Below are positions 25,586 to 43,198 of a stretch of DNA of 64,000 nucleotides, piece by piece. The stretch is from contig DVMV01000018.1 in the NCBI GenBank assembly GCA_018714785.1, positions 10,540-74,539 of the forward strand, written 5' to 3'. This DNA is from Candidatus Alloenteromonas pullicola (lineage in GTDB: Bacteria; Bacillota_I; Bacilli_A; RFN20; CAG-826). A program made the translations under genes and the position numbers. The number at the start of each line of letters is the position of its first letter. Position 1 is the stretch's first letter. The notes under the pieces are model-generated. The model did no database searches and had not been told where the DNA came from. It was given only the letters and a program-made list of their open reading frames with translations.

Positions 25586-26750
25586 CGCCGTTCTCCTTCG
25601 ATGCTATATAGGGCCCAGGCAGCGTCTCGTGGTTGCTGGCTTGGTTGCCCTCGACGTGCGGCATTCCGGTCTGCTCGTCGAAGATGAGGCGGTCGAGGTA
25701 GGTGACGCGCAGCGAGGGGTCGTCACCTTGGGTGTCGTAGCCGTGGTAGATCATCCAGTATTCCCCGGCGTCGTCTTGGATCACGGCGCAGTGGCCGGTC
25801 CCCATCGCCCCGCGCAAAGACGGCACCACCACCGGGTCCCCCCGGTTGGGCCCGAACATGTCGCGGCCCTGCGAATCGAGGTATGGCCCCTTGAGGCTCT
25901 CGCTCCTGGCGACCACCACTTTGTAGGTGCTCTGCGCCCCGGAGCAGCAGCTGCCGGTGGAGAGGAACATGTAGTAATAGCCATCCTTCTTCAATATGAA
26001 GGTGGCCTCGTAGTTGTTGAGGTCGTTGATCCCGTACCCGGCCAAGGCGACCTTCTCTTCCCTCTGCTTTTCAAGCCCGCCATAAAGGGAGAGGCCATCC
26101 TCGGAAAGCTCGATCAGGGTTATGTATCCGCCATAAGAGCCGAAGGCCATGTAGAGGCGGCCGTCATCGTAGAAGACATGGGGGTCGATCGAGTTGGTCA
26201 CCCCGATCTCCTCGGAGTTGAAAAGCTTCCCATGATGGGTCCATGGCCCATATGGGGTCGGCGAGGTGGCGACCCCGATGCCGGGGTTCTCGTCCCCGCC
26301 GGTGGAAAGGGAATAATAGAAATTCCAGACGTCCCCCACCTTTATCACGGTCGGGGCCCAGACGCCCGCCCCGCTGGTCCCCCAGTTCGGGGTGTAGGAG
26401 TCGAAGACGTTCCCGCGGTAGGTCCAGTTGACCATGTCGATTGAGGAGAATATCGGGCCGCGGTTGAAGGAAAGGTTCGGCGTGTAGACGTCGGTCTGGG
26501 TGCAATAGAGGTAGAAGGTCCCGTCGTCGTCGCGGATGACGTAGGGGTCGGCCATGTAGGTGGGCTTCTTCTGCCCGTCTACTATCGGGTAGGTCGGGTT
26601 GGAGTACGGGTTGTTGGTGGAAACTATGATCGAAGAAGACGATGATCCCCCTTCCGTTGGCGAGGTGCTGGATCTAGCTTCCCCACCGCAGGAAGACAAA
26701 GTCAAAACCGCCAAAGCGATCATCGAGATAGTGGTTGTCCTTTTTGCCAT
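25578..26750 (-). CDS. Secreted glycoside hydrolase family 43 lipoprotein
   Basis: Lipobox LSSC; MADPYVIRDDDGTFYLY, GVWAPTVIKVG; ~50% identical to 24419..25585. Confidence 0.65.
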   Translation of the reverse strand: MAKRTTTISMIALAVLTLSSCGGEARSSTSPTEGGSSSSSIIVSTNNPYSNPTYPIVDGQKKPTYMADPYVIRDDDGTFYLYCTQTDVYTPNLSFNRGPIFSSIDMVNWTYRGNVFDSYTPNWGTSGAGVWAPTVIKVGDVWNFYYSLSTGGDENPGIGVATSPTPYGPWTHHGKLFNSEEIGVTNSIDPHVFYDDGRLYMAFGSYGGYITLIELSEDGLSLYGGLEKQREEKVALAGYGINDLNNYEATFILKKDGYYYMFLSTGSCCSGAQSTYKVVVARSESLKGPYLDSQGRDMFGPNRGDPVVVPSLRGAMGTGHCAVIQDDAGEYWMIYHGYDTQGDDPSLRVTYLDRLIFDEQTGMPHVEGNQASNHETLPGPYIASKENGDE

Positions 26751-26940: not shown

Positions 26941-28842
26941 TTATTGCTTCTCCGCTTTCCTCAATACGAGCTTGGAGGCATCGATGTTGAAGCAGGCCGA
27001 CTTGCTGTCGAAGCAAGAGGCATAGCCCGGGCACAGGACGCAGACGTAATCGGGGAACTCCGGCAGGTTGGCATATAGAACGGCGTTCTCGCCAAGCAGC
27101 GACTCGTTGACGCATTTGAACTTCATCGAGTCCTGCTTGTCCAACCCCTCAAGGCGCCCAAAGCGCCCCACTCTCTTTAGCAGCGTGAATGCGTCGAATG
27201 GTATCGTCAGCTCGTAATGCCCCGGCTCGTAATCGCCTTCTAGCTTAAGGCAATACCCGCCGAACTTGGCATAGCAAGCCCCGTCTTTTTCCTTCCTTAC
27301 ATCAGCGATGCAGGAATTGGAGGTGAATGGATAGGCGGCTATGAGCCGGTTCTTCAGCTTCTTGTCGTATAGTTCGCAAAGGGTGGGGTCTAGGTATAGA
27401 TCGACCTGGTCGCCCGGCTTGGCCTCCAGAAGCGGCAAATCAGCGGTCAGATAGGTCTTCAGCCCCGGGATGGAGAAATACATGAACCGGCTGCCCTTCT
27501 CGCCCTCGACCGACTGGATCGTCGCCTTTAGCTTAAGCGAGCCCTCCTTGCATTCTAGGCCGAATGCGTTGGCCGGTATCCGGAGGAAGACGTCGTTCTC
27601 GCCGCGGAAGCTCGGGAGCAGCCTGCTAAGCTTATCGCCGTCTAGCTTTATAGTTTCCTCGCCAAGCGTATACGTGCCATCCTTCCCGTTGAGGCGGGTG
27701 ACGACGAAGTTCTCGCCGACCAAGGCGGCGATGCGGCGCTTGCTGTCTTTATCAAACAGATGCAGATGCGTGGTGTGGAAAGTGACGGTCAGGCGGTCGC
27801 CCTCGCGAAGCTCCTTCCTGCCATCGAGCTTGGCGACGATTGGGATCTCGGTGCCTTCGATCTGGCAATAGGCGACGAGCTCCGACCCCAGCTTCTCGAT
27901 GACGTCGATGACGACCGGAATCGATTCGGCGCCATCAGCCGAGTCGACCTGGTATATCTCCTCGGGGCGCAGTCCAAGTATGACCTCTTTCCCGATGTAG
28001 TCGAGGTCGATGAGCTCGCGGATGGTTTTATCGTGAATCTTGATCTTGAAGGCGCTGCTGCCCTTGGTGATCAATCCATAGTAGGCGCCGTTCTCCTCGA
28101 CTATCCGGCAGTCGAAGAGGTTCATCTGCGGGGTGCCTAGGAAGGTGGCGACGAAGACGTTGGCCGGGTGGTCGTATAGCCTGGTCGGGGTGTCGACCTG
28201 CTGCACTACGCCATCCTTCATGACGACGATCTTCGAGCCCATGGTCATGGCCTCGGTCTGGTCGTGGGTGACGTAGACGAAGGTGGTCCCCAAGCGGCGA
28301 TGGAGTTTGGTTATCTCCGACCTCATCTGGACGCGCAGCTTGGCATCGAGGTTGGAAAGCGGCTCATCGAGGAGGAAGACCTTCGGCTCGCGGACAATCG
28401 CCCGGCCGAGGGCGACGCGCTGCCGCTGGCCGCCAGAGAGCGCTTTGGGCTTCCTAGAAAGGTAAGGAGTGAGCCCCAGCACCTCGGCGGCGGACTTGAT
28501 GCGGCGGTCGATCTCGTCTTTGTCCAGCTTGGCGAGCCTAAGGCCGAAAGCCATGTTCTCATAGACGGTCTTATGTGGGTAAAGCGCATAGTTTTGGAAG
28601 ACCATGGCTATGTCGCGGTCCTTCGGTGGCAGGTCGTTGACCACCTTCCCATCGATGTCGAGCTCGCCCGCGGTTATCGTCTCAAGCCCCGCGATCATGC
28701 GCAGGGTGGTTGACTTGCCGCATCCGGACGGGCCGACGAAGACCACGAAGTCCTTGTCGTCGATCTGCAGGTTGAGGTCGCTGACGGCCCTGACGCCGCC
28801 ATCGTATACCTTGTGGATGTGCTTTAGAGTTAGGCTGGCCAT
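26941..28842 (-). CDS. MsmK/MalK-type ABC ATPase with ~260-aa C-terminal extension of unknown function (Cys-rich end)
   Basis: Walker A GPSGCGKST, LSGGQRQRVALGRA, LLDEPLSNLD; canonical MalK C-terminal domain ends near LHLFDKDSKRRI (~aa 375); 633 aa total. Confidence 0.85.
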   Translation of the reverse strand: MASLTLKHIHKVYDGGVRAVSDLNLQIDDKDFVVFVGPSGCGKSTTLRMIAGLETITAGELDIDGKVVNDLPPKDRDIAMVFQNYALYPHKTVYENMAFGLRLAKLDKDEIDRRIKSAAEVLGLTPYLSRKPKALSGGQRQRVALGRAIVREPKVFLLDEPLSNLDAKLRVQMRSEITKLHRRLGTTFVYVTHDQTEAMTMGSKIVVMKDGVVQQVDTPTRLYDHPANVFVATFLGTPQMNLFDCRIVEENGAYYGLITKGSSAFKIKIHDKTIRELIDLDYIGKEVILGLRPEEIYQVDSADGAESIPVVIDVIEKLGSELVAYCQIEGTEIPIVAKLDGRKELREGDRLTVTFHTTHLHLFDKDSKRRIAALVGENFVVTRLNGKDGTYTLGEETIKLDGDKLSRLLPSFRGENDVFLRIPANAFGLECKEGSLKLKATIQSVEGEKGSRFMYFSIPGLKTYLTADLPLLEAKPGDQVDLYLDPTLCELYDKKLKNRLIAAYPFTSNSCIADVRKEKDGACYAKFGGYCLKLEGDYEPGHYELTIPFDAFTLLKRVGRFGRLEGLDKQDSMKFKCVNESLLGENAVLYANLPEFPDYVCVLCPGYASCFDSKSACFNIDASKLVLRKAEKQ

Positions 28843-28843
28843 A

Positions 28844-29740
28844 TTATTTCTCCTCCTTGTCCAAACCTTTGCCGACGAGGTCCTCCTCGTAGCGGCTGTT
28901 TATGTATTTGTCGTAACGCGAATAGCAGTAAAGCGAGTTTACCAAAGCGAAATGCGCGAAGCCAAACAGCACGCATATCGATAGGCAGATCATCTGCACC
29001 AGGAAAAACGGGATGAAAAGCAAGATGAAGAATATCCCGCCTATGATTAGGAAAGCCAGATTCAGCGGATACAGCACCACCGCGAAAAGCCCGCAATTCC
29101 TCAGGCTGTCCGACAATTTGAAATCGTATATAGACCCATAGCAAAGCAGATGTATCGCCATGAATTGCGCGCAAAGCACGATCAAAGCCATCAAAACCGC
29201 CACCACGATCTTCAAAGCCGAAGGGACGTTATCCATGCTGGGATAGATGCTTAGGTCGGCTATGAAAAGCGAGGCCGTTATGGCGCTTATCGCCCAGGAT
29301 AAGGCGGCTTCCTTGGCGTTGGATTTCATGCCCAGGAAGAAATCGCGGTAGAAAAGCGAGCCCTCTTGGTATATCAGGCCTTTCATCACGAAGAACAGGC
29401 CTGCTAAACCATAGAACATAGGCAGCGAGAGCACTAGCACGCCGGCCGATAGGATTAGCCCAAGCATCAGGATCAATGACGGCAAATCCCCGCCGGCTTC
29501 CTCACAGGCGGATATCGCCGATTGCGAATATGGCATATAGAGGAAGACGAACAGCAATAATGGCAAAGCGAAGATCGAGGTCAGCATCGAAAGGCAGACC
29601 AGGGAGAAGAATCGGTTCCTGAATATGTCGAAATAGGCCGCCACCCGGTTGGATGGAAGCTTGGGGTTGGGGTTCTTGGCCTCGCGGTTGAACAACCTAT
29701 AAAACGAGTCTCTTCTCATCTGCAAAAGCCTTGACCTCAT
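28844..29740 (-). CDS. Integral membrane protein, possibly YesL/DUF624-like (accessory to sugar ABC systems)
   Basis: Six or more hydrophobic helices; family assignment by context and composition only; start may be the internal Met 21 nt downstream. Confidence 0.4.
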   Translation of the reverse strand: MRSRLLQMRRDSFYRLFNREAKNPNPKLPSNRVAAYFDIFRNRFFSLVCLSMLTSIFALPLLLFVFLYMPYSQSAISACEEAGGDLPSLILMLGLILSAGVLVLSLPMFYGLAGLFFVMKGLIYQEGSLFYRDFFLGMKSNAKEAALSWAISAITASLFIADLSIYPSMDNVPSALKIVVAVLMALIVLCAQFMAIHLLCYGSIYDFKLSDSLRNCGLFAVVLYPLNLAFLIIGGIFFILLFIPFFLVQMICLSICVLFGFAHFALVNSLYCYSRYDKYINSRYEEDLVGKGLDKEEK

Positions 29741-30602
29741 CTAGGGTCGGCAAACTCGATATCGCCCCGACGCGCTGGGTGGCGATCGCCCCGGCGGCGT
29801 TGGCATAATGCAGCGCCTTGACTACATCCAACTTCGATATATCACCGCAGGCGTCGACCTCTGATAGAAACAACGAATAGAAGGCGTCGCCCGCTCCCGT
29901 GGTGTCGACCGGTTTGAGCGGGGTGGAGGGAGCGGAGTATTCCTTCCTTTCTAAATAGGCCTTTGACCCACTCTTCCCACAGCTTAAGACCAATAGCTGC
30001 CCAGGGCGGGTCTCGTATCCGGATGGGTAAAGTATCGCCTGCTCCTCGTCTGACATCTTGACGATGTCGAATAGCGGGACCAGGTCGCGGTATATGGCGA
30101 TAGCCTCCTCCTTGGAGGCGAAGATGTCGTCGCGGTAATTTACGTCGAAGGAGGTCGTGATGCCCCGCTTCTGGCATTCGGATGCGGCAAGGCGCAGGAA
30201 TTCCCTTCCGAAGTCGTAGCAGACCATAAGCGACCCGAAGTGGACGATATTCGGCTTCGAAGCGAGCAGCGCCTTGAACTCTTCGAAGTCTAGCAAGGCA
30301 TCGGTCATGTCCTCCCTATCGAAGCGAAAGCTGCGCTCGCCATTAACCAAGCTCACCTCGGCGATGGTGGTTTTCTTGCCATCTATGGTCTTAATGCTGA
30401 GGGGATCGAATCCGAACCCGGCGGCGAAGCCAAGGAGCGATTCGCCCTCCTCGTCGTCCCCCACCGAGCCGAAGAAGCCGACTTTGCATCCGACCTTAGC
30501 CATCCCGCAGGCGACGTTGAAAGGCGCCCCGCCGGGCTTGTCGATGTGCTTCTCGCCATCGATGAACCTATCGATCAGTATCTCTCCTGCGCAGATGATC
30601 AT
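29697..30602 (-). CDS. scrK: Fructokinase (PfkB/ribokinase family)
   Basis: PfkB signature DTTGAGDAF near the C-terminus, GG motif near the N-terminus; sits inside a fructan locus. Confidence 0.8.
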   Translation of the reverse strand: MIICAGEILIDRFIDGEKHIDKPGGAPFNVACGMAKVGCKVGFFGSVGDDEEGESLLGFAAGFGFDPLSIKTIDGKKTTIAEVSLVNGERSFRFDREDMTDALLDFEEFKALLASKPNIVHFGSLMVCYDFGREFLRLAASECQKRGITTSFDVNYRDDIFASKEEAIAIYRDLVPLFDIVKMSDEEQAILYPSGYETRPGQLLVLSCGKSGSKAYLERKEYSAPSTPLKPVDTTGAGDAFYSLFLSEVDACGDISKLDVVKALHYANAAGAIATQRVGAISSLPTLDEVKAFADEKRLVL

Positions 30603-30603
30603 A

Positions 30604-31563
30604 TCAAGCGGTCTCCCCCTTGAAGAATGTGGTTGGGATGGTGTAGACGTCGTCGATATCCTTTTGCCCCGTTATCCTCATGTTCAGGACCTCGACTACC
30701 TTTTTGGCCATCGCGGGGATATCCTGGACGACCGAGGTGAACGAAGGCGACTGGATCAAATCGTTCATGCAGCCATCGTAGGTGATTATCTTGACGTCAT
30801 CGCAAGACTTGCCGTTCCTTACTAGGACTCGGTAATAGGCGAAACCGTAGGCGTCTGAGGTGGCGAACACCGCATCCACATCCGGGAAGGACGCAAAGTA
30901 CTTCTCGGAGTAGCAATATTCCTCGCCGTGCTTGGATTCGTAGTATCCGGTCCTTTCTTCCATGCCGTGTTCCGAAGCGAAGTCGGAATAGGCGCGGTAG
31001 CGGTCGTAGACGAAGCTGGTGACGGCCGGCTTGCCGCCGAGGAACCCGATGCGCCTAGCACCTTGTTCCCAAAGGTAGGCAAGGGCCTTCTTTGTAGCCT
31101 CGTAGTTATCCGAGGTTATGGTGGGGACCCCACCTGCAAACCGCCTATCGATGGTGACGATCGGGAGGTTGGGGTCCATGCGGTCATAGAAATTGTGGGT
31201 TACGAAGATGATGCCATCGATCTGGCTCTTCTTGGCAAGCGATATGAAGCTTTCCTCCCTGGCCTTGTCGTTTCCAGAGTCGGTGAGCAGCAGCCTATAC
31301 CCTAGGGCATAGGCCTCGTCCTCTATCGCCTCGGTGATCTTAGAGAAGAAGGGGTGCGAGATCTTAGGAACGCACAGCCCTATCGTCATCGAGCGGTTGT
31401 ACTTAAGCGCCCGGCCGAGGGAGGAAGGCGAATAGGAAAGGTCGTCAATCGCCTTCTTGATCCTCTCGGCGCACTCCTCCGAGACATACCCGTTGTTGAA
31501 GTAGCGGGACACGGTGGATTTGCTGACGCCGGCTTTTTTCGCAACATCGATGATCGATGACAT
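30604..31563 (-). CDS. LacI-family transcriptional regulator (ScrR/FruR-like)
   Basis: HTH MSSIIDVAKKAGVSKSTVSRYFN plus sugar-binding domain; candidate binder of the 44559-44576 palindrome. Confidence 0.85.
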   Translation of the reverse strand: MSSIIDVAKKAGVSKSTVSRYFNNGYVSEECAERIKKAIDDLSYSPSSLGRALKYNRSMTIGLCVPKISHPFFSKITEAIEDEAYALGYRLLLTDSGNDKAREESFISLAKKSQIDGIIFVTHNFYDRMDPNLPIVTIDRRFAGGVPTITSDNYEATKKALAYLWEQGARRIGFLGGKPAVTSFVYDRYRAYSDFASEHGMEERTGYYESKHGEEYCYSEKYFASFPDVDAVFATSDAYGFAYYRVLVRNGKSCDDVKIITYDGCMNDLIQSPSFTSVVQDIPAMAKKVVEVLNMRITGQKDIDDVYTIPTTFFKGETA

Positions 31564-31581
31564 CTTATTAACCTCTTTTTG

Positions 31582-33402
31582 TTATTTTACCTGCCTTTTG
31601 CGCTTATATAGAACGACTAAGGCGACAATTGAGGCGGCGGCTATGCCAGCTAAGGCCAAGAGGAGCGCGTAATCGACGGCATTGTCCTCGTTTATCTTGA
31701 AGACCCCGCCTTCTGAAGCGGCCTCGACCCTCTGGCTGAGGTTGGCCATGGAAGCGTCGATCTTGGTCAACTGAACGGTGTTCTGGTAAATGGCGTCGCC
31801 GACCTCGTAGGTGCCATAGGAATAGTCGTCGGAGAAGTCGACAATCTCCCGGGCTTCCGGCGACAGTGCGGTGTAGGCGGTGACCAAAGCATTAAGCGAC
31901 GAGCTGACGCCGCAGTAGGAGAATCCGTTGTCGTAGATACGAGCCTTGGCGTAGTAATCGGTAACGAACGCGGCGGCTTCGCTCAAAGCGGTGGGCTCCG
32001 CGTCTTCTTCTAGGTGATACGAATCCTTGGCGACGCCGTTCTCGTTCCCTTGCGAGATCAAGTCGAGCTTAAGGGAGGGGTAAGCGGCATAATCGGTCCT
32101 TATCTCGTCGAAGAAAGCGTTGCCCCAATTTCCGCCGTGCTCGCAATCGGAAATGGCGATGCAGACCTTCTTCCCGGCAGCGGAAGGAACCTCAAAAATG
32201 TGGCGAACCATCGTGGCGTTGTAGGTATCGCGCCGGACAATGTTGTTAACGTTGTCGCCAAATAGCTGATTTTGATGCGAATAGAGAACCTCACCATCGG
32301 GATAGGATATCAGTTCGACTTTTGCGGTGCGTCCTCCAAGCTTAAGCGAGAACAAACCAAGATCGTTCATTTTGAACGGCGAGGAAATCAGGCGATACTT
32401 CGCGTCTTCGGCACCAGAGGATGCGCATCCATCGGTGAGGCCGCCTGCAAAGAACTTGTCCCCGGTCACATTGAACGGAGCCGGAAGCATTTCGGCGTTA
32501 ACAACGAACGTTTTCTGAGAAGAAACGCTATTTTTGAAATCGATATAATATCTATCCTCGCTGCCAGTGGTATTCTGCCGACTTGAAAAGGATATATCAT
32601 AAGCCCAATTGGAAAGCTCGTCATCAATCTCAAATCCTTCCTTGAAGTAATTCGGGAGATTGTCGGCAACAAACGAATACTCTGGGTTTGTATCGTAAAC
32701 GTCTACACAATATGCCGTGGATAGAGTATTGGAGTTAGTGTCAGACCCATATCCAGGAAGGTTGACGTTGGCAAGGTTCATTCGATGAACACCAACCGAT
32801 GCTGCCGCCTCCTCAATAGTCTGATTGACACGCAAAGCTCCGAGGGCCACGAAGCCATAATCGGACGTGGCGTTATCGGTTATTTTCAAATAGAGGTCGC
32901 CGTCGAACCCTTCTCCAAGATCAACAACTCTCATCATCATGTTCGATGATATTTTCGGATCGCTGAATAAGTTATTAACGACGGTAGCCTTCACTATTTC
33001 CGTGTTTGCATCAACAATCTCGACCTTGCAGGCCTCCGTATTGCGCGCAGCCCCGAAAGTGAATGTAATGTATCTTTGATTTTGGTGCCAGGGCTTGGAG
33101 TTGACCGTTCCAGTCCAGTCTTCGCGAATGCTCCCGTTATAGAATTCGTCAAGCGCGTTGAAGAATCTATAATTCCAGAACGTACCGTAACGACCGGTGT
33201 CCCATTTGTCAGCACTGTTTTCAGTGTATGAACTGTTTGGATCGCTGATGACATCGAAATTGTCCTCGTTGAAAGGCATGTAGATGTTGGTCGGAGTGGC
33301 TTCGGCGGCGGAAACGCCGATAGAGGTGGAACCGTGGCCGATAAGTGCCAACGGCGATAGCAGCAATGCGGCTGCCGGGATGATAAACAGTGCTTTTTTC
33401 AT
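31582..33402 (-). CDS. Surface protein with repeated CBM-like beta-sandwich modules, signal peptide and C-terminal TM/KRKRQVK anchor (candidate fructan-binding protein)
   Basis: Modules of type FKMNDLGLFSLKLGGRTAKVELISYPDGEVLY shared with the next gene and with the N-terminus of the GH32 lipoprotein; C-terminus LLLALAGIAAASIVALVVLYKRKRQVK. Confidence 0.55.
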   Translation of the reverse strand: MKKALFIIPAAALLLSPLALIGHGSTSIGVSAAEATPTNIYMPFNEDNFDVISDPNSSYTENSADKWDTGRYGTFWNYRFFNALDEFYNGSIREDWTGTVNSKPWHQNQRYITFTFGAARNTEACKVEIVDANTEIVKATVVNNLFSDPKISSNMMMRVVDLGEGFDGDLYLKITDNATSDYGFVALGALRVNQTIEEAAASVGVHRMNLANVNLPGYGSDTNSNTLSTAYCVDVYDTNPEYSFVADNLPNYFKEGFEIDDELSNWAYDISFSSRQNTTGSEDRYYIDFKNSVSSQKTFVVNAEMLPAPFNVTGDKFFAGGLTDGCASSGAEDAKYRLISSPFKMNDLGLFSLKLGGRTAKVELISYPDGEVLYSHQNQLFGDNVNNIVRRDTYNATMVRHIFEVPSAAGKKVCIAISDCEHGGNWGNAFFDEIRTDYAAYPSLKLDLISQGNENGVAKDSYHLEEDAEPTALSEAAAFVTDYYAKARIYDNGFSYCGVSSSLNALVTAYTALSPEAREIVDFSDDYSYGTYEVGDAIYQNTVQLTKIDASMANLSQRVEAASEGGVFKINEDNAVDYALLLALAGIAAASIVALVVLYKRKRQVK

Positions 33403-33420
33403 CTTTTTTCCTCCTATGAA

Positions 33421-35586
33421 TCAAAGCGTGTTTATTGCTTCGGCGTAAGGTATTTGAACCTCCTCGCCGTTTTGAACCACGGTGTCGTAGTTGCCCTCGA
33501 CCGCTACCGGATCGGGGTTATTGACAACGACGTCATCGAAGAACGCGACGCCCCAAGATAGGCCTGCAGCCAAGACATTGTCGCGGAGCTCGACATATAG
33601 GTAACGACCAAGCAAGGACGAGCAATCAGCGACATACTTAGTCATGCTGAGGCGGCAACCATCTTTGATAAGCGGGAAGTTCCCGTCGTTGAACTCGGTG
33701 TTCTCATAGACGGCGACCTCTTCCCCGGTCGAGGCGTCGATTAGCGCAAGCGAAGCTGCCCTACCACCGAGCTTGAAGGTTATGAATCCTGATCCAGATA
33801 GTTTGAACATAGTCGAACGAATTGAATAGCCATCGGATTCAGCAACTCCGCTGTTCCAACCATTGAAGAAGTATTCCCCGGTCTTGTTGAACGGGATTTC
33901 CTCGGCCCAGAAAGTCGTCTCGTTAGAAATTGGGTTCCCAGATATGGCTCCGGACTGGGTCCAGCCATCCAAATTGCCGGTCTCAAACCCTCCATTCTGG
34001 ATGTCGGGCTCGTTGAATTCGTCTAGGACCTCTAGCAAATACGATCCATCAGAGCTCTGACCATAAGCGTCGGTGGCAGTAAAGCCAACCTCGTATTTCC
34101 CCGATGCCACGTTAAACGACGATGCGTCAAAGTCCGCAACCGGTTCCCCGTCATGGGAGACCGAAACAATCGATAATTCAATCGCTGAAGTTGCGGTGTA
34201 ATCGTCGTAAGTGCCGGTTTGCGCGGCATACGAAGTCAAGTCGATGGTCGAAGGAATCACGTTGAACGACTTCTCCACAACGGTTGGAGCATTGCCGGCG
34301 AAGGGGAACGACATCCCGCCGTTGTAAAGAGCTTTGTAAGCCGGTGCTGCGACGGTGTCGTCTGTGGCCGCGGCGAACTCGCGGAGCGCGGCTACGCCGT
34401 CCTTGCCCTCCTGCTCGGAGAGGTTAATGTCGAAGCCATCGACCTGGGCAAACCCAAATCCCGACGTACCGTAATCGACGATGGTGAAGTAAAGGGTCCG
34501 ACCGATATACTCCGACATATCGACGTAGTAGGTAATGAAGGACTGGGCAAGCTCTGGATCCTTGAACCCGGTGTTGTAGAAGCGGGCGAGCTCATCGCCA
34601 GTGGCGGCATCGTTTATCCCGACGTAGACCTCGGCGTTGTAGGCACCCATCATGAACTTGGCGTAGGATTTGCCTTCCCCGGCATCTATCACCTGGAACT
34701 TCTCGCTGCGCATCGTCCCGGTGAGCGATTCGGCATGGTTGAGGCCGTTGAGGAAGTAGTTCCCCTCGGCATGGTACTGACGGTTGCCCCAATACATCTC
34801 GGTCGATGAGGATATGAGCCCGTCTTTGTCGAAGGCCTGTCCGGCAATCGGCTTCCAATATGAGGCATCGCCGGTCTCGAAGCCGCCGTTGCGGAGCTTG
34901 GTTACCGGGGTCTCGGCATCGATGTCCTCGTCGGCATGGGCAAGCAGGAAATCCGCCCGCTCCACCAGCACATCGTTTCTTTCCGCAGCGGTCTGAAGCA
35001 CCTTTATGTCATCGATGTTGAAGAAGGAGTAGTCGGTGTAGTCGCTGCCGGCGTCCTCATCGACGAACTTGATGTAGATCGCCTCGTCGAGGTGGTCGCT
35101 CAAATCGACGACGTTGGGGACCAATTCCGAGGATATGGTCGTGCCGTTCCAAACGGAGTTGGTTAGCTTGGTCAGCTTCGTCTTGTTGTTATTGGCGTAG
35201 AACTCAAGCGGCTGCTCCGAATCGACGGAATAGAACTCGACGTAGCACTTCGACTGGTCTTTCATCGCCCCGATATCGAGCGCGATCTGCCCGATGCCGC
35301 CGAGGATGAACGGATCGGAGGTCAATGTCCCCTTGAAAGACGGCAAGGAACCAACCCCACCGACGTAGGAGTAATCGCCTTCCTTGTCTATGTGCTTCTG
35401 GTCCGAATAGGTGTCGGCGTCGCTGACGTCGTCCTCCGATAGCCCGTTGATGGTCCAACCCTCGAGACCCGATTCGAACGATCCGTTCTCGATGGTCTGG
35501 TTGTACTTGGGCGCGGTGTCGGTTTCGCCTTGGCAGCCGCAAAGCGCAAGGGCGGCCAAAGGCAGGGCTAATAGATTGATTCTCAT
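33421..35586 (-). CDS. Surface lipoprotein with three or four tandem CBM-like modules (NGxFExG...W start signature; FKLxGxGxxxxKLGGR core)
   Basis: Lipobox LALCGC; repeated NGSFESGLEGW / NGGFETGDASYW / NGGFETGNLDGW module starts; FKLSGSGFITFKLGGRAASLALIDASTGEEV. Confidence 0.55.
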   Translation of the reverse strand: MRINLLALPLAALALCGCQGETDTAPKYNQTIENGSFESGLEGWTINGLSEDDVSDADTYSDQKHIDKEGDYSYVGGVGSLPSFKGTLTSDPFILGGIGQIALDIGAMKDQSKCYVEFYSVDSEQPLEFYANNNKTKLTKLTNSVWNGTTISSELVPNVVDLSDHLDEAIYIKFVDEDAGSDYTDYSFFNIDDIKVLQTAAERNDVLVERADFLLAHADEDIDAETPVTKLRNGGFETGDASYWKPIAGQAFDKDGLISSSTEMYWGNRQYHAEGNYFLNGLNHAESLTGTMRSEKFQVIDAGEGKSYAKFMMGAYNAEVYVGINDAATGDELARFYNTGFKDPELAQSFITYYVDMSEYIGRTLYFTIVDYGTSGFGFAQVDGFDINLSEQEGKDGVAALREFAAATDDTVAAPAYKALYNGGMSFPFAGNAPTVVEKSFNVIPSTIDLTSYAAQTGTYDDYTATSAIELSIVSVSHDGEPVADFDASSFNVASGKYEVGFTATDAYGQSSDGSYLLEVLDEFNEPDIQNGGFETGNLDGWTQSGAISGNPISNETTFWAEEIPFNKTGEYFFNGWNSGVAESDGYSIRSTMFKLSGSGFITFKLGGRAASLALIDASTGEEVAVYENTEFNDGNFPLIKDGCRLSMTKYVADCSSLLGRYLYVELRDNVLAAGLSWGVAFFDDVVVNNPDPVAVEGNYDTVVQNGEEVQIPYAEAINTL

Positions 35587-36980
35587 AGGGTTTCACCTCC
35601 ATATGTCTCGAGGGAAAGCCCCTCGATGCTTAGCTTCCCGAGGAAGCATATTGAGCTTTCGCCGTTGCCGTAGAACTGGCTGGAGAAAGCATAAAGACCG
35701 TCATCGATCAGCATGTCGATCAGGCAGCCGTCGACCAGGATGTCGAAGCGGAGCTCGGAGGAAGGCCGGACCTCGATGTAGCGGGTATCCTCCTTGGTTC
35801 CGTCTTTGCTGTATATCTCCTCTTCCATGCCTTTGCGCTCGACCTTAAGCAAGCTCCTATCCTTGGAATAGGAAACGGAGAACCCGCCGTCGAGGACGAA
35901 GCTCCAGTCGGAAGAGGTATCGACGGCGAACTTTATGCGCTTGCAATCGCCGGTTGGCAGATCGATCTTCTTTATGCCATCTTGGCAGGCGAGGTTGCCA
36001 TACTCGGCATGCCCCGTTTCGTACTTCTTAAGGCCATCCGGGAAAGACTGCTTGAGCAGAGGCGGCATAAAGGAAAGCCGGCGCGGCAAAACCAGCGACC
36101 CGGCATAGCCGTCTTTGGCGGTTGGATAGTTCCTATCCCACATCGCCTCAAAAGCGGTGAGCAGGAACTCGTTTCCATTCGACAACGTTTGGGCGGCGTA
36201 GAAGTCAAACCCATGGTCGAATTCGGTCTCCTCTCCGACCGGCTCAAAACGCCCGGACCTAAGATCGGCGCGCCCATAAACATAGACGGAGCTATGGATG
36301 TTCTGGAAGCGGTATGGGTCGGCCGATTTCCTAAACTGCGGAGAGAAGATCAGATAGGCATCGTCCTTGCCATCGAAGGGGAAGATTATGTCGGGGCATT
36401 CCATGATCCCCTCGCCGGTGAGGTCGCTGTGGTAGAACTCGGAGACGAACTCAAACCGCTCGCCATCCTTAGATTTGAACAGCAATATCGAGGAGCCTTT
36501 GTCCAAGCAACGGCATCCGGCGAGGATGTAGATGTTTCCATCCCTAACGAAAGCCTTGGGATCCCTGAAGTCTTTGCGCGAATACCGGCTTGGCAGAATA
36601 TCCGGATCGATGACCGGGTTCTGCGGGAATTTCTCGAAATTGCGGCCGTCTTTGCTTTTGGCAAGGCACTGCACCTGCTTCCCTTCCTGCGCCCCGGTGT
36701 AATAGGAATATATCGTCCCATCCACCACGATCGAGGAGCCGGAGAAGCAGCCCCATGGCAGTTCATATTGTTCTGTCGGCTTAAGCGCGATTCCGTCTTC
36801 TATGAACTTGACGCCATCGCCGGAAACGAAGTGGAGCCAATGCATCGGCCCCCACTCCGGCTTATATGGATAATGCTGGGCATAAAGATGATAGACGCCA
36901 TCCTTAAAGCAGAATCCGTTTGGATCGTTTATCCAGCCCTTCATGGGGGTTATGTGGAACAAAGGTCTTTTTATCGTCAT
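35583..36980 (-). CDS. Cytoplasmic glycoside hydrolase family 32 (beta-fructofuranosidase / sucrose-6-phosphate hydrolase / exo-inulinase type)
   Basis: Start re-called at MTIKRPLFHITPMKGWINDPNG (GGAGGAGG RBS, ATGA overlap); canonical WINDPNG, FRDP, ECP blocks; no signal peptide. Confidence 0.85.
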   Translation of the reverse strand: MTIKRPLFHITPMKGWINDPNGFCFKDGVYHLYAQHYPYKPEWGPMHWLHFVSGDGVKFIEDGIALKPTEQYELPWGCFSGSSIVVDGTIYSYYTGAQEGKQVQCLAKSKDGRNFEKFPQNPVIDPDILPSRYSRKDFRDPKAFVRDGNIYILAGCRCLDKGSSILLFKSKDGERFEFVSEFYHSDLTGEGIMECPDIIFPFDGKDDAYLIFSPQFRKSADPYRFQNIHSSVYVYGRADLRSGRFEPVGEETEFDHGFDFYAAQTLSNGNEFLLTAFEAMWDRNYPTAKDGYAGSLVLPRRLSFMPPLLKQSFPDGLKKYETGHAEYGNLACQDGIKKIDLPTGDCKRIKFAVDTSSDWSFVLDGGFSVSYSKDRSLLKVERKGMEEEIYSKDGTKEDTRYIEVRPSSELRFDILVDGCLIDMLIDDGLYAFSSQFYGNGESSICFLGKLSIEGLSLETYGGETL

Positions 36981-39022
36981 TTCCCCTCCTCCAATAGGTA
37001 TAGGCTCGCGTCGTGCAGCGTCGCTTCCCCGCCATCGGCGAAGAAGGATATCCCGTCGCTGCCTTCGCTTGGGTAGGCTATCCCGCTCATGGTGAGGTAG
37101 CCGCCATTCACGAACACCTCGATTGAGCTCTTGTCGAGGAAGCAATCGAGCTCGATGTCGCCGTTCTCGTCGGGGCTGACCACGGCATAGCGCAGCCCGT
37201 CATCCTCCACCCCGGCATCGGATTTGATCTCCAATCCGGAGTTGGAACGGTCGAAGACCAAGGCGCCCAGCGAGCCGTCGTAATAGACCTTGACCGCCTC
37301 ACCGGTTCCCTCGAACAGGTTGAGCCCGGCTTTCCCGCTTCCTAGCGAGGAGACGTTTATCTTGCACTTAACCCTGGCCGCGGCCCCGTTGCCTATAAAG
37401 GCGGATGAGGAGGCATCGGGCACCGAAATCGGATCGCCGAACAGGGTATCGACCTCCTCGATCGGCTTCTGGTATATATGCCCATCGACCAAGGTTATCT
37501 CACGCGGCAAGGTCGCCTCGCCCGCGGTCCCGTAGACCGCCGAGGGGTAGTTGCGGCTCCACATGTTCATCCAGGCCATCAGGATCTGCCTGTCTCCTAG
37601 ATCGAGTATCTGGGTGGCGTAGAAGTCGAATCCCTTGTCAAGCTCCTGCAGCGAATCGACGTCGGGGACGAACTCCCCGGTCGAGAAATCCATCTCGCCA
37701 ACCAGGTAGGCGACCGAATGCAGGTTCTGGAACTCGCCGAGCTCATCGCTTCTAACCGACTGAGGGGAGGTGATTATGACGTCCTTCCCGCCGAGGCTGA
37801 CGTAATTCGGGCATTCGAGCATCCCGTCGCCGGTGACTGTCGTCGAATAGGATTTTCCAACATAGGCAAACGACGCCTCGCCGGTTTGCTTATATAGGTA
37901 AACCGACCCGCCAGGGCCCTCGTTCTTCCCGCCGATGACGGCATAGACGTCGCCGTCGTGGAGGAAGCAATAGGGATCGCGGAAATCGGTTATCCGGCTT
38001 TCCCCGCGCATCGAGGAGTCAATGACAGGATTGGCCTGGCGCTTGGAGAAATTGACACCATCGTAGCTCGTGGCCATGGCCTGCTGCTGCACGCCGCCTT
38101 CCCCCACCGCGGTGTAAAGAAGGTTCAGCGAGCCGTCCTCTCCGACGAACGCCCCTCCGGAAAAGCAGCCGTTGAGGTCATAGGGCATATCCGGGGCGAG
38201 GGCCACCGGCAAAGTCTCCCAGTGCAAAAGGTCGGTTGATACAGCGTGCCCCCAATGCATCAGGTCCCAAGCGGGCGAATAGGGGTTGTGCTGATAGAAC
38301 ATGTGGTAGGCGCCTTCGTAGTAGATGAAGCCGTTTAGGTCGTTCATCCACCCGATCTCGGGCATCAGGTGGTAGGTGTGGCGATAAGGCGAATCCGGCA
38401 GCTCCGGCGCCGCCTTCTCTATGTAGGAGTTGGCGTCGCCGACCAAGGTACCGTCGTCGTCTTCCCCAAGGTAGTCGAACCTGATGTCATCGGCCAGGAT
38501 GTAGTTGTAGCCATCGCTCCCGCCATCATCGTCGACGAAGCGGAGGAAGCACTCGCGGCCGGCGAATTGGCCAAGCTCGGTGCTTTGTACCCTCATCCTC
38601 CGGCTCGGAGAGTTCTCGTTGAATAGCCGATTGGTTATGGAAAGCAGCGTCTCGCCGGTTTCGGCATCGATTAAATCGATGTGGCAGAGGTCGGGGTTCT
38701 TCATGGCGCCGAGGCTCATGGTCAGCCTGGTGTTCTGGCCGATCTTGAAGCGGGTGCTGTCCATCTTCCCGGTCGCGGAAAGATCGGATTCGGAATGGGA
38801 GGTATCGAGGTAGAAGTCGCCCGAGGCATTTATCCTCATGGCATCGGACCCGGCCACCGTGATGGCGGCATCGGAGAAAGCGGTCCCCTCGATGGAGGAG
38901 AAGCCGGTCAGGTCTCCCTGCTCGAAATCGCCGTTTACTATCCGGCAGTCCTCCTTAGCCTGACCGCAGGAGGCGGCGCTTAAGGCCAAGACCGGCATTA
39001 TCAAAGCAAGACGGCGAGACAT
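36977..39022 (-). CDS. Extracellular GH32 lipoprotein (levanase/inulinase type) with N-terminal CBM-like module
   Basis: Start at MSRRLALIMPVLALSAASCG (lipobox); N-terminal module FKIGQNTRLTMSLGAMK...DAETGE; catalytic blocks WMNDLNG, FRDPY, MLECPNY. Confidence 0.85.
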   Translation of the reverse strand: MSRRLALIMPVLALSAASCGQAKEDCRIVNGDFEQGDLTGFSSIEGTAFSDAAITVAGSDAMRINASGDFYLDTSHSESDLSATGKMDSTRFKIGQNTRLTMSLGAMKNPDLCHIDLIDAETGETLLSITNRLFNENSPSRRMRVQSTELGQFAGRECFLRFVDDDGGSDGYNYILADDIRFDYLGEDDDGTLVGDANSYIEKAAPELPDSPYRHTYHLMPEIGWMNDLNGFIYYEGAYHMFYQHNPYSPAWDLMHWGHAVSTDLLHWETLPVALAPDMPYDLNGCFSGGAFVGEDGSLNLLYTAVGEGGVQQQAMATSYDGVNFSKRQANPVIDSSMRGESRITDFRDPYCFLHDGDVYAVIGGKNEGPGGSVYLYKQTGEASFAYVGKSYSTTVTGDGMLECPNYVSLGGKDVIITSPQSVRSDELGEFQNLHSVAYLVGEMDFSTGEFVPDVDSLQELDKGFDFYATQILDLGDRQILMAWMNMWSRNYPSAVYGTAGEATLPREITLVDGHIYQKPIEEVDTLFGDPISVPDASSSAFIGNGAAARVKCKINVSSLGSGKAGLNLFEGTGEAVKVYYDGSLGALVFDRSNSGLEIKSDAGVEDDGLRYAVVSPDENGDIELDCFLDKSSIEVFVNGGYLTMSGIAYPSEGSDGISFFADGGEATLHDASLYLLEEGK

Positions 39023-41355
39023 CAGTAGATACCCTCCAAAAAGTTGATCTTCGCGTGCGAGATGCTGGTGTAGGAGGAGGCGGAGAAGGAGAGGCAAAGC
39101 GCGTCTAGATCGGTCGGGTAGCTCCTCGCCGATATGGTCTTCTCCTCATCGAAGCAGACCTCAACCATGCTGCGGTCGACCAGCACATCCAAAGTGTGGG
39201 TCGATTTGCCGGAAAGCGACCCGGAATACACTCCGCCGGACGCGGGGTAGTTGCTAAGGTTGGACTGGTTGTCCACCTCGGCATAGTCGGGGCGGATGGT
39301 TATCGCGGTATATTCCTCCCCGGACTTGGTCTGCCTGACCTTAAGCGTGGCCTCGTCGAGGGTGATGAAGGAAATTGTGAGCCTAAACGAATCCGACTCC
39401 ACCTTAGACAAAGCGGAGGCGAGATTCTCCACCGAAGGCAGATCGAACTCGACGCTCTCGCCGGATTCGATGGAGGAGGTGTCGATTATGGAGATCCCAA
39501 GGTCGGACCTCGAGGTGTCGTAATAAAGTTTCCTGACCATCCCCATGTTGTGGGCCCAGCCCGAAGAGGAGAGGGCGCTGGAGGTCCGAAGCGACTGCAT
39601 GATGGAGAACATGTAGGCGTTGCCGTCGTTGGGGTCGATGAATCCCGAGGGGCCGGTGAAGACGTTTCCGCCGTAATCCATCCGGCGCGGGTCGGCGAAG
39701 TCCGGGACGAAGCGGCAGGCTTCCTTATCGAATTCCCCGATCCAGTAGATGATGTTGTTGTCGGCGGTCTCGGCCGGGGCGGGCGAGATGGCCAGCACGA
39801 ACTTGCCAGAATCCTCGCCCTTTTCGTTTTTAAGGGGGAGCAGCACCGGCAATTCCCAAACCGATCCGTACTTGGCGTCGGAATTGCTGTAATCGAAAAG
39901 GTGGCCCTTGTACTCGAACTTGTGGAAGGGATCGGTCTTCGAGGCGTCGGTCTTGTAGACCACCACGGTCCCGCGGCCGCTGTTCTCGTCCCCAGATCCG
40001 ACTAGCAGGTAGTAATCATCGCCGTCGCGGTAGACGTGGGCGTCGCGGAATTCGCCCGCGCGGCCTTGCCCGGGCTGCTGGGCGATGGAGAGCTCATCGT
40101 CGATGACCCATTCTGTCAAATAGGGATCGGAAAGGTCCTTCGGGGTGGCCATGCCGATGTTCTGATTGGACTGCAGGCCCGGATGGGCGTAGTCGCCCGC
40201 AGTGAAGAAAAGCACCGGGGTGCCGTCGGGGGCGATGGTAGATCCGCCGCTCCAGACGCCATCGGGGCAGACCGACCCAGCGGTCGGAACCACCACTTCC
40301 TTCCGCGGGGTCCAATTGACCATGTCCGTGGAAGTCAAATGGCCCCAGCATATTCCCTGAGCCCCATTGAAATACGGGCCGTTGAGGTTCTGCTGGAAGA
40401 AGATGTGGTAGACGCCGTTATAGAAGAATGGCGCGTGCGGCTCATTCATCCAATTCTCGTATGGGCCGCCGTGGTATTGCGGCTTATATGCGTCTTCGGT
40501 CAAGGAGTTCTGCAGCCAAACATCATCGAAGCTAAGCTGCGGAATCTCTCCGTTTTGCAGGCCTTGCTTGAAGATTGAGCCTATTTCTGCGGCGGTTTTG
40601 GCCTGTCCATAGACCTTGACCTCGTCGAGCAATCCGGAGACGACGTTGGTAAGGCAATCGCCGTTGGAGCCGGCTTGGGATGACTTGCCGATGCTAAAGG
40701 GGACGTCGGCTGGCTGGATGAAGGAATCCTGCCCCACGTTCATCCGGTTGACAATGCGGCCGTTCTTGAATAGGCGCAGCTCGCCCGAGGCGCCGTCGAA
40801 GGTGGCGGCCACGTGGTTCCACTGATACTGGTCTAGGGGAGTGCCCTCGTCGTAGAGCTCGAACCAGCCCTTGTCGGTCCCGACGCCGACCATGAACTTT
40901 CCTTCCCGGCGATATCCAAGCAGGACGCCAAGCCCGGTCGAGCCGTCGTAGAAGTACTGGCTGATGATGGCCTGCACGTTGTCGTCGCTAGCGTTCTGGT
41001 CGGAGTAGTTGTAGGCCCTTGGGGCGATCCAGGCCGAGAGGGTGAAGGAGTTGCCGGACAGGACGAAGTCATCGGCCTCGCCGTATACGCTATAGCCATC
41101 CATGACCAAGGCCTCGCCGCGGATGCCTTTCTTATAAGAAAGGTAGGAATCGCCGCGGTAGGTCGGGGAGGACTGCAGATGGGAATACAGGGTGCCGGAG
41201 GCGCCTTCCTTGCCCTCGCCGACGAGCTCCATGCCAGATTGCTCATCGAGCGGGTAATAGGCCAAAAGCCCCTCGTCGAGGGATGGGGTCTTCGCCCCGC
41301 AGGAGCAGAGCGCAAACGGCAATAGGAAGGCTAGGGACTTTAGTTTTTTCATCAT
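39022..41355 (-). CDS. Lipoprotein with LamG/concanavalin-like domain fused to a GH32-like domain carrying non-canonical catalytic blocks (WMNEP, RDA, WELP)
   Basis: Start at MMKKLKSLAFLLPFALCSCG; LamG-like region (FTLSAWIAPRAY...WNHVAATFDGASGELRLFKNGRIV); GH32-like HGGPYENWMNEPHAPFFYNGVYHIFFQQN. Confidence 0.75.
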   Translation of the reverse strand: MMKKLKSLAFLLPFALCSCGAKTPSLDEGLLAYYPLDEQSGMELVGEGKEGASGTLYSHLQSSPTYRGDSYLSYKKGIRGEALVMDGYSVYGEADDFVLSGNSFTLSAWIAPRAYNYSDQNASDDNVQAIISQYFYDGSTGLGVLLGYRREGKFMVGVGTDKGWFELYDEGTPLDQYQWNHVAATFDGASGELRLFKNGRIVNRMNVGQDSFIQPADVPFSIGKSSQAGSNGDCLTNVVSGLLDEVKVYGQAKTAAEIGSIFKQGLQNGEIPQLSFDDVWLQNSLTEDAYKPQYHGGPYENWMNEPHAPFFYNGVYHIFFQQNLNGPYFNGAQGICWGHLTSTDMVNWTPRKEVVVPTAGSVCPDGVWSGGSTIAPDGTPVLFFTAGDYAHPGLQSNQNIGMATPKDLSDPYLTEWVIDDELSIAQQPGQGRAGEFRDAHVYRDGDDYYLLVGSGDENSGRGTVVVYKTDASKTDPFHKFEYKGHLFDYSNSDAKYGSVWELPVLLPLKNEKGEDSGKFVLAISPAPAETADNNIIYWIGEFDKEACRFVPDFADPRRMDYGGNVFTGPSGFIDPNDGNAYMFSIMQSLRTSSALSSSGWAHNMGMVRKLYYDTSRSDLGISIIDTSSIESGESVEFDLPSVENLASALSKVESDSFRLTISFITLDEATLKVRQTKSGEEYTAITIRPDYAEVDNQSNLSNYPASGGVYSGSLSGKSTHTLDVLVDRSMVEVCFDEEKTISARSYPTDLDALCLSFSASSYTSISHAKINFLEGIY

Positions 41356-42257
41356 TTGAGACCTGTGAAGGATACCCCTTCGATAATGTATTTCTGGGCG
41401 AAGATGTAGACCAAGGCGATGGGGATGGTCGAGAAGGTCAATGAGGCCATGATCATGCCGAGGTCCTTGGGGGTGTTCGTGTTGACCAACTGCAGGAATA
41501 CCTGAAGCGGCTGCATGGCCGGGTTGGGGAACATCAGCTGGGCGAAGATGTACTCGTTCCACTGCCCCATGAAGGTGAAGATCGCAACGGTGGCGAACAC
41601 CGGCTTGGAAAGCGGGAGGATCATCTTGAAGAAGACGCCGATCCTCGAGCACCCGTCGATCCTGGCTGCCTCCTCGATCTCGATTGGCATGCCGAGGAAG
41701 TACTGCCGGAACATGTAGGTGTAGAACAGCGAGCCGAAGCCGGGGAGCAGGTAGCCAAGGACGCTCATCGGCTCCTCCAGTAGGCCAAGGTAGTAGAGGA
41801 TGATGTAGGTCGGGACGACCGAGGTCTCGATCGGAACGATCATCAGGATGAGGATGATGGTCGTCATGGCCTTGTTGCCGGGGAACTTGAACCGGGCCAA
41901 GGCATAGCCGGCGAAGGAGTTGATCAGCAGCACGCCGAGGATGGTCACGCCGCAGTAGATTATGGAGTTAAGGATCGACCTGCCGAAGCCGTCGAACGAG
42001 TTGAACAGCTTCTCATAGCTAACGAACCAGGTGCTGATGTCGAAGCTAGGTGGCAGGAAGGTCATTATCGACCCAAGCTGGGCGGAGATGGTGTCGCCGT
42101 CCTTGAAGGAGTTGTCGACCATCCAGACGATCGGGAAGAGGAAGATGAAGCACAGGACGGCCAGCCCCAGCACGATCAGGGCTTTCTTCCCTATCTTGCC
42201 GAGGTTGGGCTTGCGGTGGATCTTCGCGGAAGCGATTTTGCCGTAGGTTGGTTCCAT
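41352..42257 (-). CDS. Sugar ABC transporter permease (MalG-like)
   Basis: EAA motif EEAARIDGCSRIGVFFKMILP; multi-TM. Confidence 0.85.
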   Translation of the reverse strand: MEPTYGKIASAKIHRKPNLGKIGKKALIVLGLAVLCFIFLFPIVWMVDNSFKDGDTISAQLGSIMTFLPPSFDISTWFVSYEKLFNSFDGFGRSILNSIIYCGVTILGVLLINSFAGYALARFKFPGNKAMTTIILILMIVPIETSVVPTYIILYYLGLLEEPMSVLGYLLPGFGSLFYTYMFRQYFLGMPIEIEEAARIDGCSRIGVFFKMILPLSKPVFATVAIFTFMGQWNEYIFAQLMFPNPAMQPLQVFLQLVNTNTPKDLGMIMASLTFSTIPIALVYIFAQKYIIEGVSFTGLK

Positions 42258-42261
42258 TGCT

Positions 42262-43197: not shown

Positions 43198-43198
43198 A

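Follow-up and report, generated by a model that had tools for sequence, protein, structure and literature searches.

Two predicted surface-anchored proteins built of CBM38 modules are candidate non-catalytic fructan binders encoded beside GH32 enzymes in Candidatus Alloenteromonas pullicola

We analyzed a 64,000-nucleotide stretch of DNA from Candidatus Alloenteromonas pullicola (the window; positions 10,540 to 74,539 of contig DVMV01000018.1, assembly GCA_018714785.1) and focused on two neighboring open reading frames (ORFs), which encode the 606-residue protein A606 (31582..33402) and the 721-residue protein B721 (33421..35586). Coordinates are those of the window, and all of the window features described here are on its minus strand. 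We consider it probable that A606 and B721 bind fructan at the cell surface as non-catalytic proteins composed of modules of carbohydrate-binding module (CBM) family 38 (CBM38), with B721 anchored by a lipid and A606 by a transmembrane (TM) helix. An earlier note on this DNA, made from the sequence, had placed the two ORFs at these same coordinates and had proposed them as surface-anchored, non-catalytic, CBM-like candidates for fructan binding. That proposal is supported by the homology of the modules to repeats of cycloinulo-oligosaccharide fructanotransferases (CFTases), by their predicted glycan-binding-module fold, and by their association with glycoside hydrolase (GH) family 32 (GH32) genes.

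The two proteins are related through a repeated module. When the ORFs of the window in all six frames were searched with a hidden Markov model (HMM) of this module, exactly six copies were found, with independent E-values (iE) ranging from 5e-17 to 2e-50: three in B721, two in A606, and one N-terminally in D681, a predicted GH32 lipoprotein (aa 27-182; 38477..38944; iE 8.8e-29). The modules of B721 matched one another in profile-profile comparisons (hhalign, from an alignment of 48 homologues) with probabilities of 99.6-99.9% and E-values of 1e-23 to 1e-33, and the D681 module matched the B721 modules by BLASTP with E-values of 2e-10, 6e-8, and 2e-6. Because of the hhalign matches and the six HMM copies, we regard the repeated module as real and as common to the GH32 lipoprotein. 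The earlier note was therefore right to recognize the module in both proteins and at the N-terminus of the extracellular GH32 enzyme (36977..39022), and the core motif that it described, F(K/Q)..G.G....K.GG...L.D..TGE, is seen in the module alignment. Its estimate of 130-150 aa for the module length was too short, the measured value being ~160-170 (~165) aa. The NGxFE opening that it gave for the modules is exact in the three modules of B721 and in that of D681, but is degenerate in both modules of A606, which begin with NSSYTEN..KW and KEGFEIDDELSNW.

The assignment of the module was made by comparison with the CFTases. Among the six copies, module 3 of B721 is the nearest to the N-terminal inulin-binding repeat of these enzymes. 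In BLASTP searches it was 42% identical (E 4e-32) to aa 60-217 of the Niallia (Bacillus) circulans CFTase (P0347 = O52973, BAA24360.1; 1503 aa) and 43% identical (E 1e-30) to aa 78-235 of the Paenibacillus polymyxa CFTase (1333 aa; P0386 cluster, including AAL82574.1/Q8RLU3). An HMM built from B721-family modules only matched every CFTase repeat with iE values of 8e-16 to 2e-53, locating the repeats at aa 56-226 (2e-50), 241-410 (1.5e-51), 422-559 (8e-16), and 1330-1490 (7e-33) of the N. circulans protein and at aa 74-244, 259-396, and 1167-1328 of the P. polymyxa protein. CBM38 (formerly X39) comprises residues 32-389 of the 1333-residue P. macerans CFTase and consists of two β-sandwiches (PMC10076258), and this region binds levan and inulin with low micromolar affinity (Lee et al. 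2004; PMC10076258, PMC8291819). The P. macerans span corresponds to the P. polymyxa modules at aa 74-244 and 259-396. On the basis of the BLASTP identities of 42-43%, the HMM matches to all of the CFTase repeats, and the correspondence with the P. macerans CBM38 region, we assign the module core by homology to family CBM38 of the CAZy classification. The core had previously been described as not assignable, with CBM38 listed only as a comparator, and the accompanying statement of novelty on fructan binders had likewise missed this known fructan-binding family.

The CFTase modules share further features with those described here, being ~165-aa β-sandwiches that open with NGxFE.G...W, occur in tandem copies, and are associated with GH32. 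A protein that is 61% identical to both named CFTases, P0168, has modules at aa 37-207, 221-391, 404-558, and 1329-1493 and its GH32 domain at aa 810-1306. This layout is near-identical to the dbCAN annotation published for a Defluviitalea raffinosedens protein, CBM38(44-189)+CBM38(221-367)+CBM38(409-527)+GH32(808-1121)+CBM38(1313-1448) (PMC7355431). The identification of P0168 with that published genome was tried and rejected, as its contig, GCA_900175155.1, is not the WSLF assembly, and the likeness is one of architecture only.

The fold of the module was examined by structure prediction. The AlphaFold2 (AF2) model of B721, computed from the homologue alignment, had a mean pLDDT of 89.3 and comprised three jelly rolls joined by helices, together with an immunoglobulin (Ig)-like sandwich at aa 435-520. 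Module 3 modeled on its own (pLDDT 88.3, pTM 0.85) formed a jelly roll of ~10 strands, and this single-module model was used for Foldseek searches in place of the full-length one, which gave noisy multi-domain matches (reelin, Cry1Ac, and Vip3). The best match of module 3 in the Protein Data Bank (PDB) was TmCBM61 (2xon; E 8e-6, TM-score 0.65), and its other neighbors included CBM4-2, a porphyran-binding CBM (8xmz; TM-score 0.68), CBM27, and the sugar-binding domain of Fbs1. We conclude from the model that the module belongs to the galactose-binding-like jelly-roll superfold and is CBM4/CBM61-like. The CBM4/CBM9/CBM22-type and CBM61 modules (2xon; RmCBM4-2, 1k42 and 2y6k) have this jelly roll in common with it (Foldseek E 8e-6 to 1e-4, TM-scores 0.5-0.65), as well as the opening strand NGxFE.G..GW. 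Identity in the structural alignments is only 13-19%, however, and the ligands of these modules are xylan, glucan, or galactan, not fructan. Sequence profiles gave little more. Pfam CBM_4_9 (PF02018) scored 19.2 bits against a cut-off of 25.9 and covered only aa 30-66 of B721 (37 residues), with no match in A606 or in the N-terminus of D681; NTTRR-F1 was a motif-level match only in the Pfam and NCBIfam scans; and a PDB sequence search with a 27-sequence module profile returned just the NGxFE motif of 8xmz (E 0.007).

The module had been likened to the CBM4/9/22/66 type, and the jelly-roll fold agrees with that description as far as CBM4 is concerned, but not for CBM66. The CBM66 of the Bacillus subtilis exo-levanase SacC is also a non-catalytic fructan-binding module on a GH32 enzyme, and its presumed targeting role is the same, but the two families are distinct: neither the sequence searches of the PDB nor the 50 best Foldseek matches of module 3 contained a SacC or CBM66 entry. 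We rejected the CBM66 reading because there was neither a sequence match nor a fold match.

In B721, a predicted lipoprotein, three CBM38 modules are combined with a single Ig-like domain. Its signal peptide and lipobox (MRINLLALPLAALALCGC; 35533..35586), which were read by eye, place the predicted lipidated cysteine at residue 18, and this Cys18 of the lipobox-like LCGC motif is nearly invariant in an alignment of 48 full-length homologues, in agreement with the earlier lipoprotein call. The HMM located module 1 at aa 28-200 (34987..35505; iE 5.7e-45), module 2 at aa 229-391 (34414..34902; iE 2.1e-50), and module 3 at aa 528-690 (33517..34005; iE 7.3e-49). Four modules had been counted previously; there are three, plus helical linkers and the Ig-like β-sandwich, which we call X (aa ~435-520; 34027..34284; strands at aa 440-520 in the AF2 model). 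X was ruled out as a fourth module by its hhalign probabilities of <1% to all three modules, and its Pfam match to InlK_D3 was below threshold. No catalytic domain was found in B721, for which the Pfam and NCBIfam scans gave no match above threshold. Approximately 150 full-length homologues of 720-760 aa were identified, every one of them named "hypothetical"; across Clostridia and Bacilli, members of this family with as little as 32% identity still agree in length, in the order of the three modules, and in ~60 invariant residues. The three modules differ in their distance from the CFTases. Module 3 shares 42-47% identity with CFTase repeat 1 versus 24-32% with modules 1 and 2, module 2 is 32-34% identical to the CFTase repeats, and module 1 is a divergent subtype without the (Y/F)W...G.Y motif that is present in modules 2 and 3 and in the CFTase repeats. 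Judged from these alignments, the modules of B721 represent three ancient subtypes whose positions have been conserved, and because module 3 is nearer to CFTase repeat 1 than to its own neighbors, the subtypes may reflect differing specificities.

A606 has a different architecture, in which a signal peptide is followed by two CBM38 modules, a C-terminal region of ~135 aa, a TM helix, and a basic tail. The signal peptide (aa 1-~33; 33304..33402) was recognized by sequence reading and hydropathy, with windows of ≥1.6 starting at aa 2-4, and because this leader has no cysteine, A606 is not predicted to be a lipoprotein. Module 1′ (aa ~45-200; 32803..33270; iE ~2e-19 to 2e-21) and module 2′ (aa ~252-440; 32083..32649; iE ~5e-17 to 6e-19) are followed by a non-module region (aa 441-577; 31672..32082) that lies outside the HMM coverage and had no match in the Pfam scan. 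Module 2′ is 33% identical to module 3 of B721 by BLASTP (E 4e-15). Close relatives conserve the aa 441-577 region, P0146 does so weakly (29% identity, E 2e-5), and the region is possibly a stalk. At the C-terminus, hydropathy defined a TM helix (YALLLALAGIAAASIVALVVLY) that is preceded by the residues ...FKINEDNAVDY and followed by the tail KRKRQVK (31585..31671), such that the leader and the terminal hydrophobic stretch with its basic tail are both as first described. Sortase anchoring through an LPXTG signal was considered and rejected, as TIGR01167 scored 11.8 bits against a cut-off of 15.9 and there is no LPXTG motif; the C-terminus is thus predicted to be a membrane anchor and not an LPXTG signal. 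Pfam and NCBIfam scans of A606 gave nothing above threshold. A word-indexed search found 26 relatives, few and mostly close, and the more distant A606-type proteins were identified only via gene position and the HMM. The architecture, including the TM anchor, is kept in P0146, which is 27% identical, and in a 547-residue protein that occupies the A606 position in the locus L004 and has two modules with the same TM and basic-tail ending. A relative of A606 with 27% identity is encoded between GH32 and LacI genes.

The genes for A606 and B721 lie within a fructan-utilization operon (26941..44545; Pfam). Read from 44545, the gene order is a solute-binding protein, two ABC permeases, the GH32 genes E772, D681, and C465, and then B721 and A606, followed by a LacI-family regulator, a PfkB fructokinase, a 298-aa membrane protein, and a 633-aa MsmK-like ATPase. 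E772 (39022..41340) is a predicted 772-aa lipoprotein with LamG (Laminin_G_3) and GH32 domains; D681 (36977..39022) is a predicted 681-aa lipoprotein in which the CBM38 module precedes the GH32 N- and C-domains (Pfam 1e-81 and 2e-26, respectively); and C465 (35583..36980) is a 465-aa GH32 protein that has no signal peptide and is predicted to be cytoplasmic. The closest solved relatives of the catalytic part of D681 are sucrose-6-phosphate hydrolase, β-fructofuranosidases, and an exo-inulinase, so that by homology D681 resembles exo-acting β-fructosidases. The genes overlap at TGATG (39022; E772/D681) and at ATGA (36977-36980, D681/C465; 35583-35586, C465/B721), whereas B721 and A606 are separated by an 18-nt spacer containing GGAGG. 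These overlaps suggest that the three GH32 genes and B721 are translationally coupled and belong to a single operon. Two tandem GH43 genes (24419..26750) are situated directly downstream. In the databases, HIU45195.1 falls in the B721 cluster (~99% identity) and HIU45194.1 in the A606 cluster; the two are annotated as "hypothetical protein" in Candidatus Enteromonas/Alloenteromonas pullicola, a metagenome-assembled genome (MAG) from chicken gut placed in Bacillota incertae sedis.

To place the module in a wider context, the module profile was searched against 1.84 billion cluster representatives, which yielded 2214 matches at E≤1e-3, of which 335 reached E≤1e-30; many of the proteins have 2-10 module copies, and they are up to 3900 aa in length. 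In a Pfam scan of 34 multi-module relatives, the sole catalytic family was GH32 (12/34), always accompanied by Laminin_G_3, and the non-catalytic partners were anchoring or Ig-like domains (SLH, Big_2, FIVAR, and Por_Secre_tail). In a local scan, LamG-GH32 fusions were present in 20 of the 140 top-ranking representatives. The genomic neighborhoods gave a similar picture. With one genome taken per species, GH32 was encoded within ±10 kb in 71 of 78 loci, and three of the seven loci without it are contigs of <6.1 kb; the control families in the same loci were GH43 (1/78), LacI (56/78), and fructokinase (36/78). These loci span Oscillospiraceae, Lachnospiraceae, Christensenellaceae, other Clostridia, Bacilli, Izemoplasmatales, Paenibacillus, Bacillaceae, and some Actinomycetes. 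Homologues of B721 with 32-41% identity directly adjoin a LamG-GH32 gene in every locus examined (Oscillibacter, Clostridia, and Bacilli MAGs), and in L004, which has a B721 homologue of 41% identity, synteny with the window extends over the entire operon. Three-CBM38 lipoproteins paired with a LamG-GH32 lipoprotein are widespread among the uncultured Clostridia and Bacilli of the gut. The family also reaches beyond the Firmicutes, as shown by published dbCAN calls of CBM38 in a segment inserted between blades IV and V of a GH32 from Pseudoalteromonas and in a GH32 of a Bacteroides uniformis polysaccharide utilization locus (PUL) (10.1101/2024.09.11.612387, PMC9458734) and by type IX secretion system sorting tails on three of the module-bearing relatives.

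Several observations weigh against fructan binding by A606 and B721. Module 1 of B721 has no (Y/F)W motif and neither module of A606 has the NGxFE opening, and these modules may not bind sugar. The Foldseek neighbors of module 3 also include protein-binding domains, namely MAM, the ephrin-receptor ligand-binding domain, and a gingipain adhesin. PDB sequence searches with both proteins and the module profile returned no CBM38 structure, and since they gave a motif-level match only, the module family has no solved structure. The CAZy assignment itself is made through CFTase-repeat homology and the published dbCAN coordinates of a homologue, with the P. polymyxa and N. circulans enzymes standing in for the founding P. 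macerans protein, AAG47946.1. Finally, the calls of signal peptides, lipoboxes, and the TM helix come from visual reading and hydropathy alone; the lipobox-like ends that were read in this way, against the pattern [LVI][ASTVI][GAS]C, are LCG-C18 in B721, AAS-C19 in D681, and LCS-C19 in E772.

Some of these points would fit an alternative in which the modules are structural or scaffolding β-sandwiches that space the GH32 lipoproteins through protein contacts, as a mini-scaffoldin or a stalk. The fold held in common with MAM, the ephrin-receptor domain, and the gingipain adhesin, the degeneracy of the N-terminal motifs in several modules, and the helical linkers and Ig-like spacer of B721 are all compatible with such a role, and the strict pairing with LamG-GH32 fits a protein partner equally well. 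Nevertheless, module 3 is 42-47% identical to repeats of the CFTases and a close homologue, and the CFTase repeat region binds inulin and levan. Moreover, the fusion of the modules to GH32 in cis, at variable positions and in variable copy numbers, is typical of CBMs and not of docking modules. We consider a purely structural function improbable.

Slightly less probable still is that the proteins bind another glycan, such as an arabinan or xylan acted on by the products of the tandem GH43 genes or a host or mucus glycan, and serve as general adhesins. The position of the GH43 genes just past the end of the operon, the frequency of mixed specificities within jelly-roll CBM families, and the galactan, xylan, and porphyran ligands of the nearest solved folds would favor it. 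In the 78 loci, however, GH43 was found once and GH32 71 times; GH32 is the sole GH family of Pfam that is fused to the module among the 34 relatives; and B721 is apparently translationally coupled to GH32 genes in an operon that also encodes LacI and fructokinase. That A606 and B721 are decayed, now functionless remnants of a once-fused CBM38-GH32 enzyme is very unlikely, for although A606 relatives were few and mostly close in the word-indexed search and its two modules have diverged furthest among the six copies, both ORFs are intact, B721 keeps its length, module order, and ~60 invariant residues at 32% identity across Clostridia and Bacilli, and A606 keeps its architecture with the TM anchor at 27% identity.

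For the preferred reading, fructan binding at the cell surface, a mechanism can be proposed. The five CBM38 modules of A606 and B721, together with the one of D681, would bind soluble inulin- or levan-type fructan multivalently at the membrane, where the neighboring lipoprotein GH32 enzymes, the CFTase-core homologue E772 and the exo-like D681, would cut the polymer. The products would be imported by the solute-binding protein and the ABC permeases, the predicted cytoplasmic GH32 C465 and the PfkB fructokinase would complete the pathway, and the LacI-family regulator would control the operon. Over ~730 aa, E772 aligns at 34-35% identity with the LamG-GH32 core of the CFTases from N. circulans and P. 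polymyxa (E 1e-117 to 1e-121), and because of this homology the locus looks like a CFTase-type enzyme whose CBM38 modules are on separate polypeptides; E772 is likely the partner enzyme of the binding proteins. The architecture of the CFTases and levanases (CBM38 × n, LamG, GH32, CBM38) would thus be split, with the binding modules acting in trans. More tentatively, the locus might exemplify a Gram-positive "fructan utilisome" that consists of three-CBM38 and LamG-GH32 lipoproteins, often with a TM-anchored two-CBM38 protein, and whose module subtypes have different specificities; in such a system the subtypes may favor inulin, levan, and branched graminan. A bolder suggestion from the same homology is that E772 may make cyclic or other transfructosylation products in the gut.

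Comparison with characterized systems sets these proteins apart in several ways. Their modules are of the same sequence family as the CFTase inulin-binding modules (IBM) of P. macerans, P. polymyxa, and N. circulans, with 42-43% identity for module 3. The CFTases and related levanases carry their modules in cis with LamG-GH32, often together with SLH anchors, whereas A606 and B721 have no catalytic domain and carry a predicted lipid or TM-helix anchor, and the LamG-GH32 core of the locus (E772) is a separate predicted lipoprotein. The surface glycan-binding protein (SGBP) of the Bacteroides levan utilisome is reportedly non-catalytic and lipid-anchored, with its gene beside those for a surface GH32 and a transporter. 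The levan SGBP (BT1760-63 PUL) thus resembles the proteins described here in its non-catalytic, lipid-anchored mode of fructan binding and in its gene neighborhood, but its binding domains are unrelated to CBM38 and it resides in the outer membrane of a diderm, in contrast to the cytoplasmic membrane of a Bacillota cell. A Bacteroidota SusE/F-type SGBP was ruled out, because the Pfam scan found no SusC/SusD pair at the locus, where the import genes are those for the solute-binding protein, two permeases, and the MsmK-like ATPase, and because the host belongs to the Bacillota. Among Gram-positive bacteria, Sas6 of Ruminococcus bromii is said to be a non-catalytic multi-CBM surface protein for starch. 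Proteins of the Sas6 type follow the same logic of catalysis-free CBM arrays beside degradative enzymes, but differ in their CBM families, their substrate, and their anchoring, which is by dockerin or cell wall rather than by lipid or TM helix.

Inulin-type fructans are the most widely used prebiotics, and to our knowledge little has been learned of how Gram-positive gut bacteria capture fructan polymers at their surface. A search of the open-access literature found no report of a non-catalytic fructan-binding surface protein in a Gram-positive bacterium. The CBM38 family and its ligand class are already known; what is uncharacterized is the anchored, catalysis-free, multi-CBM38 architecture paired with LamG-GH32. 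No new principle is involved, as this is a known CBM family in a sensible architecture that would not surprise a CAZyme specialist. The assignment does place a large set of "hypothetical" proteins (2214 representative clusters, with up to 10 modules each and no Pfam model) in a family of known ligand, and it makes the CBM38 module a simple genomic marker of fructan loci in MAGs. Module 3 of B721, which is small and confidently predicted, is a good target for a first CBM38 structure.

Additional observations were made on the family and on the operon. Some giant metagenomic proteins, among them P0147 (3900 aa), P0160 (3220 aa), P0148 (1520 aa; seven copies), and P0215 (1160 aa; seven copies), have as many as ten CBM38 modules. 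In P0147 the N-terminal five modules recur with a regular period of ~450 aa, and the sequence between them is unassigned. Two Oscillibacter-type loci, L001 (2686..9507, minus strand) and L002 (3..6521, minus strand), encode a protein of 2173-2273 aa without a Pfam match, whose gene is divergent and located just upstream of the pair formed by the B721 homologue and LamG-GH32. In the operon of the window, the matches of the 633-aa MsmK/MalK-like ATPase (26941..28842) to ABC_tran, OB_MalK, and TOBE stop near aa 363, leaving ~270 C-terminal residues without a Pfam match; the orthologue at the same position in L004 has 624 aa, and the version in the Clostridia locus L006 is of the normal 414 aa. 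The 298-aa hydrophobic protein encoded between the fructokinase and the ATPase (28844..29740) is apparently a multi-pass membrane protein of no Pfam family, and a 302-aa counterpart is kept at the matching position in L004.

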